A DNA stretch of 64,000 nt from Candidatus Obscuribacterales bacterium (GTDB lineage: Bacteria > Cyanobacteriota > Vampirovibrionia > Obscuribacterales > Obscuribacteraceae): assembly GCA_965228855.1 (NCBI GenBank), contig CBDDIJ010000002.1, forward strand, positions 800,001 through 864,000, given 5' to 3'. Position 1 is the stretch's first letter, and the number at the start of each line of letters is the position of its first letter. Positions 29,060-62,934 of this stretch are shown here, one piece after another. The position numbers and the translations under genes are program-made. The notes beneath the pieces are model-generated. The model saw only the letters and a program-made list of their open reading frames with translations, searched no databases and was not told where the DNA came from.

Positions 29060-29143
29060 CTACTAGATCGTATCGTGATACAAAGCTTTCAAGATGTTGT
29101 GAGAATTGCTACTAGATCGTATCGTGATGCAAAGCTTTCAAGA
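29060..29143 (+). repeat. Tandem 35-bp direct repeat (period 49) of the CTACTA box region
   Basis: CTACTAGATCGTATCGTGATRCAAAGCTTTCAAGA at 29060 and 29109; first 20 bp recur at 30975. Confidence 0.9.
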
Positions 29144-29194: not shown

Positions 29195-29246
29195 TGGCAA
29201 CGAGAGAGCGACGATTTATCCAAATTCCGTCAATGCCACGTAGACA
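29195..29246. repeat. 52-bp symmetric core, copy A (left box at 29109; right box degenerate near 29338)
   Basis: TGGCAA-cgagagagc-GACG-atttatccaaattc-CGTC-aatgccacg-TAGACA. Confidence 0.85.
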
Positions 29247-30974: not shown

Positions 30975-31198
30975 CTACTAGATCGTATCGTGATGGTTTC
31001 GTTTAAAAAACCTGATAGCGCCAGTTGTTTCGTGGGACGTGATGTTTAGAGCGATGTTTTTGGCAACGAGAGAGCGACGATTTCTCGTGATTCCGTCATA
31101 GCCAGATAGACAGCCCAGAGCTATCGGAAAGACGTGTGTCTCTAGATGGTCTGTAGGGCATGTTCTAGAGGATTCGTCCTCACTGTGCGAGATAGTAG
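30975..31198. repeat. Symmetric element copy B (core 31061-31112)
   Basis: CTACTAGAT ... TGGCAA-cgagagagc-GACG-N14-CGTC-atagccaga-TAGACA ... AGATAGTAG; core centre equals element midpoint 31086.5. Confidence 0.9.
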
Positions 31199-33853: not shown

Positions 33854-33905
33854 TGGCTATCTGGCTATGACGGAATTCGAAAATTCCGGCGCTCTCTCGT
33901 AGCCA
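33854..33905. repeat. 52-bp symmetric core, copy C (inverted relative to B; left box CTACTAGAT at 33756)
   Basis: TGGCTA-tctggctat-GACG-gaattcgaaaattc-CGGC-gctctctcg-TAGCCA. Confidence 0.85.
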
Positions 33906-36494: not shown

Positions 36495-36717
36495 CTACTA
36501 TATAAGACAGGACAGGCAAAGCCTGCGATGGCCGACAACGTCAGGATCGCAGGCCCTGGAACGGCAAATCTCCTCTCGTTGTCTATCGCTCGATGACGAT
36601 TTTCAGTAAATCCGGCATCGAGCGATAGACAAAAGGGCCTGGCTCTGAACGGAAAACTTCAGACAGCGTCTCTGGTAGGCACTTTCGAGAATTTTCTTAT
36701 CTTATCCTGTATAGTAG
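36495..36717. repeat. Symmetric element copy D (core 36580-36631)
   Basis: Ends CTACTATATAAGACAGGACAGG / CTTATCTTATCCTGTATAGTAG form an imperfect 22-bp IR; core has a perfect 17-bp IR TTGTCTATCGCTCGATG. Confidence 0.9.
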
Positions 36718-44621: not shown

Positions 44622-44870
44622 CTACTAGACTAGATAGTCTTTATTGAATGCCGTCAAATGAGACGCGGCAAGGCATTTCGGCTTTGCTTCACTAGCAGTT
44701 TCACAAAGACAACTCGTTTTGGCTATCCTGGTATGACGCATTTGGCTAAATCCGGCATTCCAGGATAGACAAAGAGACTTTTGTCTCGACTACAACGGGA
44801 CGTTAAGGACTGAAACGCCCTATCTCCACAGCGTTGCGCGGTTTTGACTGAGCATGACGGCATATAGTAG
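44622..44870. repeat. Symmetric element copy E (core 44720-44771)
   Basis: CTACTAGAC (duplicated at 44593) ... TGGCTA-tcctggtat-GACG-N14-CGGC-attccagga-TAGACA ... ATATAGTAG. Confidence 0.88.
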
Positions 44871-48475: not shown

Positions 48476-48527
48476 TGGCTACGCCAGAGCGACGCTTTTT
48501 GCCAAATGCGTCATGCCAGCGTAGACA
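48476..48527. repeat. 52-bp symmetric core, copy F (left box CTACTATAT at 48378)
   Basis: TGGCTA-cgccagagc-GACG-ctttttgccaaatg-CGTC-atgccagcg-TAGACA. Confidence 0.85.
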
Positions 48528-55989: not shown

Positions 55990-57123
55990 ATGCTCAAATT
56001 TACCGTGGCAAACTATCCTGAGTTACTCGGGTACACGAAAGTTTGTCAGGTGTCTGATGAGGACATCTGGCAGCACCTCGTGTCACCGATGACGAAGGGG
56101 CTTTTGGGAGGCATCGTCGAGATTCGACCTCCTCGAGTGATTGAGTCGCTCGAAGGTCTTTTCCCTGGCGACCACGCTGCCAACCTCAACGACCACCGCA
56201 TGTTCGGTGGGCAGCGAGGTTTCGTGCGTTTTCCCTATGTGACCAACTTCTGCAAAACCGAGAATGGTGCGTTCATCGTCAAGCGAGATGGCGTCAAGTT
56301 CGAGGTGTTCTGCTGGTTTGGTGACGTTGAGAAAGGCAAGGGCGAGATGATTCTCAAAGCGGGTCTTCGCGACCGTCGCTTTGACGGCACTGTGCGTGCC
56401 AATGATTCAGCTCTGCTCGATTATCCTTACGACGACCCGATTCTGCACCGTCCGCTCAGTCCGGACTTCAGCTCTCTCGAGTTGTCGATTTACGCTTTCC
56501 TGCCCGGCTCTCGCATCACGGACGTGATCAGCGATGCCGAGTACGAGCGCTTCGTGACGCAGCCCTACACCTTCTGCAACAAGCCCGAGGAATTCATCAA
56601 GTTCTTCAATATGGCTTGGGCGTCGAAGCGTGCTCCTGGTCAGCAGGCTGCTCCGATTCCGGACGTCGCTCCCTTCGTCCTGCGCGGTTTCCAGCGAATC
56701 GCTGAGGACCTGGGCTACGACTTCCTGGAGATGGCTCCGAGCCACTATCACGTTGCTCGCTGGGGACTCGGCGGAGACTACCTCTTCCGCGACCCGGTTC
56801 AGGAGGCTACGTTCAATGCGTTCAGCGAGGGACTGGAGCGCATTCGCGCATCCGGTATGCCGCTGACTCGCTCGCAGCAGTCGTGGGTCTGCGTTGTTCA
56901 GAGCTTGCAGCCGTCCAGCCGTATACCGGTTGCGCTGCGGCTCTCCGGTCCCCAGTGGCCGCAGGACAACATCGGACCCAAGGTGCTCTGGCTCTATAAG
57001 CCGCTATCCGAGCGCGCGAAGGGTTTCAAGCCCGCGCCGCTCCACGTGGCCGAGCCTGCTGTTTCTGTCGCTGGAGGTAGCTCGTCTGCCTCCGGTTTCG
57101 CTGTTGTTGCTCCCAAAGAGTGA
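55990..57123 (+). CDS. Hypothetical protein, tandem paralog 1
   Basis: Shares LRDRRFDGT.RAND, PGSRI, APSHYHVA and WPQDNIGP motifs with the next gene. Confidence 0.85.
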   Translation: MLKFTVANYPELLGYTKVCQVSDEDIWQHLVSPMTKGLLGGIVEIRPPRVIESLEGLFPGDHAANLNDHRMFGGQRGFVRFPYVTNFCKTENGAFIVKRDGVKFEVFCWFGDVEKGKGEMILKAGLRDRRFDGTVRANDSALLDYPYDDPILHRPLSPDFSSLELSIYAFLPGSRITDVISDAEYERFVTQPYTFCNKPEEFIKFFNMAWASKRAPGQQAAPIPDVAPFVLRGFQRIAEDLGYDFLEMAPSHYHVARWGLGGDYLFRDPVQEATFNAFSEGLERIRASGMPLTRSQQSWVCVVQSLQPSSRIPVALRLSGPQWPQDNIGPKVLWLYKPLSERAKGFKPAPLHVAEPAVSVAGGSSSASGFAVVAPKE

Positions 57124-57241: not shown

Positions 57242-58336
57242 ATGGCTAACCACAAATTCTCTAGCCCGAACATCACTGAAATGCTCGGGGTTACTCCTAT
57301 TGCTCTTGTCACGGACGAAGAAATCTGGACGCGGTTGGTCACGCCCCAGGTCAAAGCTTTGCTCGGTGACATTGTTTCCAGCAAGGTTGAACTCCGTGAA
57401 ACCGTCGATGGAACCTTCAATGGCGATGAAGTGACCAACTTCAACGACCACCGTCTCTACGGCGGCAAGGAGGGTTTCAAGTACATTCGTTTCCCCTACA
57501 TCCACTCGCACTACAAGACCACTTACGGCTCGCTCGTCATCAAGCGCGACGGCGCGAAGTTCAAGGTCCTCGGATACGTCGGCAATGTCGAGAAGGGTCC
57601 GTTCGACCTGATCTTCAAGGTCGCTCTGCGTGACCGCCGCTTCGACGGAACGGCTCGCGCCAACGACTGCTCGCTGGTGGACTTCATCGGTTACGAAGAT
57701 CCCACGCTCAACCACACCCTGCAGATTGCGGGGCTGGTCGAGAACGCGACAGCAGTCGAGCTGTCCACCTACGGCTTCATGCCCGGCAGTCGCATTGTCG
57801 ACGCCACTGGTGACGAGCAGCTCGATGAGTTTGTTCGCAATCCGTACCTGTTCGTCGGCAAGCCGAAAACCTGGCTGCGCCTGTTCAAGAAGGCGTGGAA
57901 GTCGAAGCGTTCGCCCGGTCAGAACGGCAACCCCGTTCCGGACATCGCTCGCCTGGTGCCCAACATCGTCGAAGCCATGGCTTTCGAGCGTGGTTACGAC
58001 TACATGGAAAACGCACCCAGCCACTATCATGTGGCTAAGTGGGCGGAGAGCTGCAAGTACTGGTATTCCGACCCGGAACAGGCTGCAGCCCTCAAGGCTC
58101 TGGGTGCCGGTATTGCAAGCGTCAAGGCAGCCGGCGAGACGTTGACTCGTCCGCAAGAGTCCTGGCTTGTCGCGATGCAGAGCCTGCCGAAGGAATTCAT
58201 TCCCGAGAAGTTTTACTTCGGCGGCGCCAAGTGGCCTCAGGACAACATCGGTCCCGAGAACCTCTGGATGTACAAGCCTTTGTCCGACCGCGCCAAAGCA
58301 TCAGCAGCTGCTGTTGCCGCGGCGAGTTCGAAATAG
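57242..58336 (+). CDS. Hypothetical protein, tandem paralog 2
   Basis: Colinear similarity with 55990..57123 over the full length. Confidence 0.85.
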   Translation: MANHKFSSPNITEMLGVTPIALVTDEEIWTRLVTPQVKALLGDIVSSKVELRETVDGTFNGDEVTNFNDHRLYGGKEGFKYIRFPYIHSHYKTTYGSLVIKRDGAKFKVLGYVGNVEKGPFDLIFKVALRDRRFDGTARANDCSLVDFIGYEDPTLNHTLQIAGLVENATAVELSTYGFMPGSRIVDATGDEQLDEFVRNPYLFVGKPKTWLRLFKKAWKSKRSPGQNGNPVPDIARLVPNIVEAMAFERGYDYMENAPSHYHVAKWAESCKYWYSDPEQAAALKALGAGIASVKAAGETLTRPQESWLVAMQSLPKEFIPEKFYFGGAKWPQDNIGPENLWMYKPLSDRAKASAAAVAAASSK

Positions 58337-58392: not shown

Positions 58393-58571
58393 CGATCCAC
58401 TACTATATGCCGGCGTTGAACATTGTTGGAGGCGGTGTCTCGAAAGGCATGCTGTTACTGCGTCATGCCGATGCGGGTGAGACAGGCGGCAGATTTGCAG
58501 TGTCTTTTGGCAACGAGAGAGCGACGGATTTCGCGAATTCCGTCATAGTGGCGTAGATAGTGTGTTAGGTG

Positions 58572-59534
58572 TCAAGCCAGAGTGCTGTTAAACCTGGAAT
58601 CGAATGGTTGTTTCGAGCGATATACAGCGACCATCATACGGAGAAGTTTGCGTGAGGCGGCACAAACAATTACTTTTCTGTTTTTTCCCTTTGCTGCCAG
58701 TCGTTTAGCGAATTCAGCCACTGGCGGATTAAACCGAGTGGCGGTAAGGGCGGCCATGTACAACATGCTGCGGATCACTGGATTTCCCATCTTCGAAATT
58801 CTGGAACGTCCTCGGACTGAAGAACCGGACTCACGGATCATGGGATTCAGACCACAGAATGCTTCGATCTGGCGCAAGCTCGTAAACGAGTCCATCATCG
58901 ACAGTTCTGAGAGAAACGTGAATGCTGTTCTCCAGCCGACGCCCTTAATCGTCTGGAGTAATTTAGCGTTGCTTTTCAAAGCAGGATTCTCGGAGACCAG
59001 CGTCTTCGCCAGCTTTTCCAGTGTTTGAATTTCGTTGGTAATGAACTTCAACATACGCATCTGAGAGTCTAAAGCGCGCTGGTCCAGGCGTCCCGATTTC
59101 ATTCGATTTGTGACTTGGGTTTTGGTTTTCTTTAGCGCAGCGAGCTCTCTACAAATGTCTCTCAGGGAGCGAATGTCAGGATCCATCGGAGACCAAGGAA
59201 GGGGCTCCATTTTAAAACAAAAGTCGGCGATGATTTCCGCATCGATTGCGTCGGTTTTTGAACGTCTAAATTGGCTCTTGCCGAAGGCGTGTATCAGCGC
59301 TGGATTTACCACGCTGACTCGATAGCCAAGTTTGTGTAGAAACTCCGCAAGGGGCTCCCAGAGCTTCCCCGTAGCTTCCATGCAAAAGTGAACATCCTTA
59401 CCGGATGCTTGAATCCATTTGACTATTCTCTTGAACCCAGCTGGGTTATTGCTGACGTGCAGCTTCGAATTCTTCCTGTCCTGGCGATGGCAGTCTAACG
59501 TCTCCTTCGATACGTCGATTCCAACAAAGATCAT
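58572..59534 (-). CDS. IS110-family DEDD transposase / bridge recombinase
   Basis: VGIDVSK, MEATG, KTDAIDA (D-E-D-D); TIKGVG, GLNP..RESGSS..G..RISKMGN; AGGAG RBS. Confidence 0.96.
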   Translation of the reverse strand: MIFVGIDVSKETLDCHRQDRKNSKLHVSNNPAGFKRIVKWIQASGKDVHFCMEATGKLWEPLAEFLHKLGYRVSVVNPALIHAFGKSQFRRSKTDAIDAEIIADFCFKMEPLPWSPMDPDIRSLRDICRELAALKKTKTQVTNRMKSGRLDQRALDSQMRMLKFITNEIQTLEKLAKTLVSENPALKSNAKLLQTIKGVGWRTAFTFLSELSMMDSFTSLRQIEAFCGLNPMIRESGSSVRGRSRISKMGNPVIRSMLYMAALTATRFNPPVAEFAKRLAAKGKNRKVIVCAASRKLLRMMVAVYRSKQPFDSRFNSTLA

Positions 59535-59563
59535 TGCTCCTACCTCCTGTTGCTGGTTCGCTT

Positions 59564-59796
59564 GGACGCGGATAGAATCTTGTCAGGGCGAGCCTTGTTT
59601 ACACGTGCTAAATCGGTCAGGATTTGCTGTAGATAGTGTTCAGCCTTAGAGGACAAGACAGGAGCGGAAGTCCGAAATCTACGCCTCTGACTTTCTAGCC
59701 GGAGACAAAATACTGGTTTCTTCCGCTCCTCTATCCTCGCGTCCTCGGATAGCCTTGCCGACTGCACGCTCCTGGTCAACAGCAACGTACCAGTCA
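59564..59796 (-). ncRNA. Predicted bridge RNA of the IS110 element
   Basis: Target loop closed by 11-bp IR (59660-70/59720-30) with guides TATTTTGTCT and GGCGTAG; donor loop closed by TCTTGTC/GACAAGA with guides ACACTATCT and ACAAG; transcript ends approximate. Confidence 0.82.
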
Positions 59797-59936
59797 ACAT
59801 CTAACGTACAAGACAAATATGAGGACCGTTTCGCGGTCGAAGTGCAAATCCCCGAGCCATGTGGCTTTGGGCATCTCGAAGGTGTGGAGTTTTATAGTAG
59901 GATTGGCCGGCAGGTTCAAAATCCCGGGACTGCCGC

Positions 59937-62707: not shown

Positions 62708-62934
62708 CTACTATATGAAGTAGGTCTCTCTCTTCGTTCGAATGTCCCGACCTGGAATGGTTTAGGGCAAAACCTTTGCGAGCGACTATCTCGACTGCCT
62801 ATCCAGGAACGACGGAATCTCGGAAAACCGTCACTCCTGGATAGACACGATGCTCCTCATTCTGAAATTAAATCCCGGAAGTCACGCGCAGGCGGGTACT
62901 GCAGAAGTTTGGTAAATCCTGTCGAATATAGTAG
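62708..62934. repeat. Symmetric element copy H (core 62796-62847)
   Basis: CTACTATAT ... TGCCTA-tccaggaac-GACG-N14-CGTC-actcctgga-TAGACA ... ATATAGTAG; midpoint 62821 vs core centre 62821.5. Confidence 0.9.

Follow-up and report, generated by a model that had tools for sequence, protein, structure and literature searches.

Sister IS110 elements of an Obscuribacterales genome likely enter one host repeat under bridge RNA guidance, one of them across unequal cores

The IS110-family element found in the window (the whole 64-kb stretch of DNA analysed, C2:800001-864000 of the 8.2-Mb, 95% complete genome G000), here designated IS-A, is inserted in a copy of an abundant 52-bp intergenic repeat, and its sequence makes it highly probable that it inserts there by recombination guided by its own bridge RNA. 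A sister element, IS-B, would by the same means enter the same repeat at an inner position, joining a target with a GT core to a donor with a CT core. It is already known that IS110 elements target repeats (IS621, ISPpu9/10) and that two IS110s can occupy one repeat family. The broader reading, towards which the evidence inclines slightly, is that a natural IS621-like clade routinely recombines unequal cores (GT, AT or TT with CT), with the first core base serving as an extra handshake; this would overturn the equal-core rule, appears undescribed to date, and would be the way in which the two sisters have divided a repeat of the origin domain between them.

The closest named protein hit, with 85% identity, comes from an Obscuribacterales bacterium and points to the lineage of G000. 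Three identical 1256-bp copies of IS-A are present in this genome. CT is found at both ends of all three, reflecting a scarless, fixed-position insertion with a 2-bp core common to target and donor. Because of this core the ends are ambiguous, and the coordinates 58555-59810, which follow the IS621 cutting convention, are equivalent to 58557-59812. Removal of the latter interval gives ...CGTCATAGTGGCGTAG|ACAAAT, and the rebuilt window core scores 67.7 bits on the repeat matrix against a family median of 58.2, with the rebuilt cores of the three copies ranging from 63 to 68 bits (median 58). The coordinates and junction proposed for IS-A in the initial annotation are thus correct, both by sequence and by the rebuilt core, while its claim that excision restores a perfect core holds with respect to the family consensus, but not in the sense of a perfect palindrome. 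The right TATAGTAG box, said to lie 110.5 bp from the core centre after excision, has its last base at that distance. In G007, a genome of the same genus whose aligned blocks are 92-97% identical to those of G000, the orthologous sites are intact at all three IS-A loci; at the window site this empty allele has one extra arm base approximately 8 bp from the junction, the junction itself being identical. In two of the four runs examined, X8 and X17, which belong to different studies, contigs pass over the window joint with exactly 1256 bp missing, and contigs of runs X3 and X4 carry IS sequence. The empty allele therefore agrees at the junction with the reconstruction made from the window (three of three loci in G007; X8 and X17), and the other copies lie inside repeat cores, as had been supposed (3/3 for IS-A and 4/4 for IS-B). 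The IS contig of run X3 (window 58552-59817) has a depth of ~55, with ~13 in its flanks, a weak hint of four copies given that contig depth is not copy number; a loose contig end in this run matched none of the core flanks in G000.

Table 1. Features of IS-A, its insertion site and the intact repeat cores in the 64-kb window (window coordinates).
Feature	Position	Strand	Basis or remark
IS-A, complete IS110 (IS621-like) element	58555..59810	-	1256 bp including one CT core; G000 has three identical copies; empty alleles
DEDD/serine bridge recombinase, 320 aa, intact	58572..59534	-	PF01548 and PF02371; IS621 catalytic columns
TTGACA -35 box of predicted circle-junction promoter	58570..58575	-	Sequence; 17 bp from TACGTT once ends joined
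TACGTT -10-like box of predicted junction promoter	59803..59808	-	Sequence; inferred
Predicted bridge RNA, approximate limits (5' stem, target loop, donor loop)	59565..59796	-	Fold z = -4.4; compensatory pairs
Left target guide ATTTTGT-CT	59703..59711	-	7-8/9 match to three target left arms
Right target guide GGCGT, core-pairing AG, handshake AT	59677..59685	-	5/5, 3/5 and 5/5 against target right arms
Left donor guide ACACTATCT	59631..59639	-	Same sequence as the right end of the element
Right donor guide AAACA, AG, handshake GC	59592..59600	-	Pairs with CT-TGT of the element's left end
Left 49 bp of interrupted 52-bp repeat core	58508..58556		Intact in G007
Last 3 bp (ACA) of interrupted core	59813..59815		Junction reading; G007 comparison
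Left flanking box (CTACTATA on +)	58400..58407	-	Offset 126 from core centre
Right flanking box TATAGTAG	59893..59900	+	Offset 103 after excision
Intact repeat core	29195..29246		Core search; G007 comparison
Intact repeat core	31061..31112		Core search; G007 comparison
Intact repeat core	33854..33905		Core search
Intact repeat core	36580..36631		Core search
Intact repeat core	44720..44771		Core search
Intact repeat core	48476..48527		Core search
Intact repeat core	62796..62847		Matrix hit at C2:862793

The IS-A recombinase contains both the DEDD RuvC-like domain and the C-terminal catalytic serine domain (PF01548 and PF02371, respectively), and the columns of the IS621 residues D11, E60, D102, D105 and S241 are invariant in the five aligned proteins, that of IS-A included. 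Among 55 plasmid records IS621 is the top annotated relative, with 40.6% identity, while a scan of the genome-contig collection returned two distant relatives only. As far as the accessible text of the IS621 papers goes (PMC11208160, PMC11208158, PMC13626964), IS-A resembles IS621 of Escherichia coli in the same two domains and catalytic residues (40% identity), in a long non-coding left end that encodes four guides together with handshake bases, and in insertion into a multicopy intergenic repeat, which for IS621 is REP. IS-A also has the canonical CT/CT core, and the donors are near-identical (ACACTAT-CT-TGTAC in IS-A and ACAGTAT-CT-TGTAT in IS621), so that the parallel with IS621 and REP drawn in the initial annotation is apt, with donors two bases apart. 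The two elements differ in their targets, and the repeat in G000 is not a GC-rich hairpin. If joined, the ends of IS-A would give TTGACA-17-TACGTT, a predicted junction promoter like the circle-junction promoter described for IS621 (PMC11208160); the spacing of the two boxes after end joining is the same in IS-B.

The left non-coding end of IS-A is 276 bp in length and folds better than all of 200 shuffled sequences (z -4.4). Compensatory changes are seen in 12 of the 36 pairs of the consensus fold of 12 relatives, where the target guides fall in unpaired, variable columns and the donor loop is less well resolved; an Rfam scan of the window gave no match. In IS-A each of the four guides is readable, as are the two handshake dinucleotides. 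An earlier reading of the target guide as TTTTGT-CT-ACG, the conserved end of the repeat, is matched by the left guide ATTTTGT-CT and by a right guide that is the complement of CT-ACGCC. The guides covary with their targets among relatives, both in IS-B and a clade with AT target cores (see below) and in the metagenomic relative L036 (85% amino acid identity), which occupies the same position in a full core scoring 67.2 and has the right guide CTCGT and target ACGAG, where IS-A has GGCGT and ACGCC. In a second metagenomic relative, L037 (83% amino acid identity), of which the left end is missing, the right flank fits the guide and lies outside any core (score -68), so that targeting of the repeat is not exclusive.

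IS-B is 1265 bp in length and 52% identical to IS-A, with four copies in G000 (by tblastn) and one in G007 at another locus. In a tree of 44 proteins IS-A and IS-B form sister lineages with 100/99 support. The repeat is broken at an inner position by all five IS-B copies, the four in G000 sharing one symmetric offset, and at an identical base of the core by all three IS-A copies, such that the seven copies in G000 all fall inside cores that cover 0.13% of the genome. This is like the situation of ISPpu9 and ISPpu10 of Pseudomonas putida, two IS110-family elements of one genome with all copies in one repeat family (PMC1525189; 10.64898/2026.03.19.712850, as far as their accessible text goes). 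ISPpu9 and ISPpu10, however, have a single insertion base in common, with direct repeats of 2 bp (PMC1525189, accessible text), whereas IS-A and IS-B insert at different positions. IS-A leaves 49 of the 52 bp of the core, broken cores still scoring 52-57, and shifts one flanking box 1.26 kb away, while IS-B splits an inner conserved unit.

A matrix search of G000 returned 210 cores, with none in a reversed-genome control, which upholds the earlier view that the repeat is real and abundant. These hits include the three cores broken by IS-A; with the four broken by IS-B there are 214 cores, 207 of them without an IS. None of the 210 cores is located in a gene as called by a crude ORF caller, and 90 (43%) lie between convergent genes, compared with 85 of 493 background gaps (17%). 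The suggestion that the repeat serves the element as a safe harbour can be kept only in the sense of this intergenic location: the box displacement by IS-A and the splitting of an inner unit by IS-B mean that the harbour is gene-free, rather than demonstrably cost-free. The first 1.2 Mb of C2 holds 174 of the 210 cores. The dnaA gene at C2:793 kb and a GC-skew switch near 800 kb place oriC just upstream of the window, and 53 and 46 cores lie within 400 kb of this inferred origin on its two sides. The conserved bases of the core are arranged as two G(T/G)C-N11-G(A/C)C units that stand 33 bp apart on either side of an A/T-tract spacer. A TATAGTAG box is found outward of the core on 241 of 420 arms, compared with 15 of 1680 control positions, at distances that peak near 93, 104, 116 and 127 bp, in steps of ~11.5 bp, while the DNA between core and box is unconserved. 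The strict pattern was found in three of 104 family genomes (90 copies in G000, 67 in G007 and one in G006), and the half pattern occurs 281 times in G000 and 239 times in G007, compared with at most six in six other genomes of the genus, in five of which no core was seen in an orthologous spacer. Core positions are mostly orthologous in G007. In G006 the only copy is found on a 2.4-kb contig, flanked by genes of ordinary appearance, and no mobile gene is apparent there. No description of this repeat was found in the literature on the taxon searched in combination with repeats or IS110.

Several further observations were made in and around the repeat-rich region. Its G+C content (C2:1-1,150,000) is 52-63% and its called coding density 78%, with 50-51% and 87%, respectively, in the rest of the contig. 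Four of the seven gene-sized differences between G007 and G000 that were examined (L025, L028, L029 and L030) adjoin or replace a core or box, a count made without a control, and a fifth occurs at a short distance from one. In L028 and L029 (C3 of G007) a core subfamily with TGTCAA/TTGACA ends forms tandem arrays of up to six copies with a 73-bp period, and the copy number of these arrays differs between G007 and G000. Within the window, a 49-bp tandem duplication with a variant flanking box (29060-29143) is located upstream of the core at 29195, and two tandem paralogues (55990-57123 and 57242-58336; 48% identical) have no Pfam match; the latter has matches in seven of eight genomes of the genus, and a third paralogue is encoded at C2:98.5 kb. 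Elsewhere in G000, 21 tRNA genes form an array on one strand (C3:724,518-727,973).

The features of the repeat appear to suit the binding of a host protein to double-stranded DNA more than they suit a REP hairpin, and there is perhaps an even chance that it is the site of a candidate host double-stranded DNA-binding protein around the replication origin. RacA ram, parS and matS are palindromic sites crowded in one chromosomal domain. The repeat is similarly crowded in one domain, but differs in having far more copies (~214) and a longer composite site, and is proposed as a candidate protein site only. A somewhat less probable, though still serious, alternative is that it is simply a hairpin of the REP type, or else a mobile element, non-autonomous and ~220 bp from box to box. 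The intergenic location, the excess between convergent genes (90/210 and 85/493), the tandem copy number that differs between G000 and G007, the narrow distribution, the presence of CGTC and often GTAG, the inverted flanking boxes and a modest excess of arm complementarity would all fit this alternative; the accessible text on GTAG- and CGTC-tagged REP families (PMC3733652) likewise describes intergenic sequences that are enriched between convergent genes, form tandem clusters, occur in narrow taxa and carry CGTC. A REP, however, is a well-paired stem-loop of 20-40 bp with an 8-9 bp stem and an unpaired end tag (PMC3733652, accessible text), whereas the repeat measures 52 bp, contains four conserved sub-sites, all of them short, and has arms that pair weakly. 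The arms match at 17.3 of 26 positions, compared with 16.1 for shuffled arm pairs, only ~1% of the cores are near-perfect palindromes, the folding energy of -10.3 kcal/mol is barely better than that of chimeras (-8.8 kcal/mol), and the strongest dependencies within the core are between neighbouring bases. The arms thus pair poorly, and the repeat is not a typical REP hairpin. The phased flanking box and the crowding around the origin also set it apart from REP families (PMC3733652, accessible text), while the ~11.5-bp steps across unconserved DNA and the mostly orthologous positions in G007 argue against both the REP and the mobile element reading. So does the failure to find a Y1/RAYT transposase (PF01797), which only the GTAG type would call for, in the 95% complete G000, in a search whose control was positive in six of 14; a REPtron was rejected on this ground. 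Other candidates were similarly set aside. PF04552 (RpoN), expected for a sigma-54 enhancer or promoter array, was not found, and 168 of the 241 boxes face a gene end; PF00239, as for a resolvase site, was not found in G000; core-to-core spacing in 10.4-bp steps gave a best period of 12.3, which was weak; and the one match among viral contigs, in apparently coding phage DNA, was judged by eye to be due to chance. G000 has 17 matches to tyrosine recombinases and a sole ParB_N match, on the small contig C4.

With regard to how the elements find the repeat, guide pairing may be insufficient, a stem-loop in the repeat or a bound host protein gating or recruiting the recombinase as reported for ISPpu10. 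All seven copies, together with L036 and L002, are in cores even though guide-like sites exist outside them, and the accessible text on ISPpu10 (10.64898/2026.03.19.712850) offers a precedent for gating or recruitment beyond guide pairing. Matching sites are, however, mostly in cores by sequence alone: the IS-A 10-mer occurs 43 times inside and 24 times outside cores, that of IS-B 22 and five times, which makes the presence of 3/3 and 4/4 copies in cores unremarkable. The location of L037 outside a core and the poor match of the arms (17.3/26 against 16.1) also stand against this explanation. Gating or recruitment is thus rather unlikely, and probably nothing beyond a guide match is needed for insertion. 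It is very improbable that the association is circular, the repeats being remnants made or spread by IS110 elements: the repeat and both IS types do occur in the same narrow lineage, but repeat and IS have no sequence in common beyond the guides, the repeat is intact at empty sites, 207 of 214 cores have no IS, and at eight related loci in other genomes the guides differ and no core lies in the vicinity.

The IS-B insertions differ from those of IS-A in their cores. The target sequence is ...GC-GT|CATAG, with CC-GT at a single site, and that of the donor ...AT-CT|TGTAC, with AC-CT in a single copy. Only the T is thus common to both, and one base is duplicated. A GT target core is joined to a CT donor core in all five copies from two genomes, and the two cores are thus not identical. 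Two of the four IS-B sites in G000 align straight through in G007; at the third the core is intact in G007, with the alignment split there, and the flank of the fourth was not found in that genome. Conversely, the site of the single IS-B copy of G007 is empty in G000. In IS-B the GT is encoded by the left target guide, and AG is retained in both right-hand guides. In the two copies whose left guide is a variant, this guide fits the copy's own site at eight of nine positions, where the majority guide would give seven and six (n=2); the left guide of the IS-B site L023 matches at only six of nine, and the right guide at L003 at two of five. That the inequality arose by later mutation or assembly error after an insertion with equal cores, although the core is regarded as invariant in published work on IS621 (PMC13626964, accessible text), is the least credible of the alternatives, given the same junctions in five of five copies from two genomes, empty alleles that read GT, a left guide that encodes GT and a G that is 99% conserved in the repeat. 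The IS-B copy at C5:860,952-862,216 of G000 is the one that ends in AC-CT rather than AT-CT, and pairs perfectly with the target-loop handshake bases.

Unequal cores are also present among relatives. Of 50 loci, 19 anchored loci with an IS-A-type RNA scaffold were counted, since in many of the remainder the left junction could not be read or the RNA scaffold was of another kind. Of the 19, six have a CT target core, five GT and eight AT; AG is kept in the right target guide of all 19, and the donor core is CT in all 16 with a readable right end. Both junctions are seen in five of the eight AT elements, each with AT against CT, while the remaining three have no right end. L108, whose branch is separate and weakly placed, has a TT target and CT donor with a guide match of 9/9; AT and TT target cores were read from the left junction and guide only, without empty alleles. 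The IS621 control reads CT/CT, as do distant relatives with both ends readable (e.g., L094, L100 and L130). The eight AT elements and one TT element indicate that the split core is natural and recurrent. The number of pairs counted at positions 6-9 rises after exchange in IS-B and the AT elements, typically from four to six Watson-Crick pairs in IS-B, in what is a paper model and not a measurement. At a single locus, L131 (plasmid record CP084574.1, IS110 at 489-1463), the two junctions have CA, to which the right-hand guides are complementary, and CT is read in the left-hand guides. This breaks the expectation that the second base is T.

These observations differ from the account of IS621, whose CT core is called invariant in the accessible text of a 2026 structure paper (PMC13626964), in that IS-B and relatives pair a GT, AT or TT target with a CT donor. 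Within the text available for each source, IS621 cores were reprogrammed in target and donor together only (PMC11208160), the IS621 design code stops with an error when the two cores differ (PMC11208160, supplement file 7), matching cores served as a filter in IS622 designs (10.1101/2025.05.14.653916), and CT and GT cores removed cross-reaction in IS621 when each loop was programmed as a matched set (10.64898/2026.04.29.721476). Also within the available text, 12.8% of IS621 off-target sites lack CT (PMC11208160), right-guide core mismatches still gave reads in a small part of supplement file 3, and half-matched sites recombine (10.64898/2026.08.31.748434); some tolerance of the core was thus already known. 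No report of a programmed natural core inequality was found in the literature, subscription papers and bioRxiv supplements lying beyond the reach of the search, and the accessible parts of PMC11187229, PMC13604230 and 10.64898/2026.08.14.744561 add nothing on unequal cores.

A mechanism may be proposed largely by analogy with IS621. The element would form a circle, the junction of which would create the TTGACA-17-TACGTT promoter, and the resulting bridge RNA would pair with both target and donor. Since the guides of IS-A match one end of an abundant intergenic repeat, insertion would occur there, the repeat potentially offering dozens of gene-free landing sites. Both strands would then be cut just 3' of the core, in which case the first core base of each partner would stay where it was. 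For IS621 the cut in both strands falls between positions 9 and 10 (PMC11208158, accessible text), which predicts exactly the unequal-core junctions observed. As the left target guide of IS-B carries the G of the target, while the AG of its right target guide fits the CT of the donor, the first core base may act as a third handshake position favouring strand exchange. Recombinases of the IS-A/IS-B class are likely not to need the identical cores demanded by design rules.

Bridge recombinases are under development for genome editing, with design rules by which target and donor must have identical 2-bp cores. The unequal natural cores suggest that no base but the T need be common to both, provided that the right-hand guides remain matched to the donor. 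If true, a single donor with a CT core could serve every NT target, and the orthogonality of cores would become a matter of guide design. Boundary searches that rely on duplicated cores could, in turn, miss elements with unequal cores. For the IS621-like family, the unequal cores represent genomic support for a crossover 3' of the core, while in the host the IS insertions flag a lineage-specific repeat with ~214 copies crowded around the origin.
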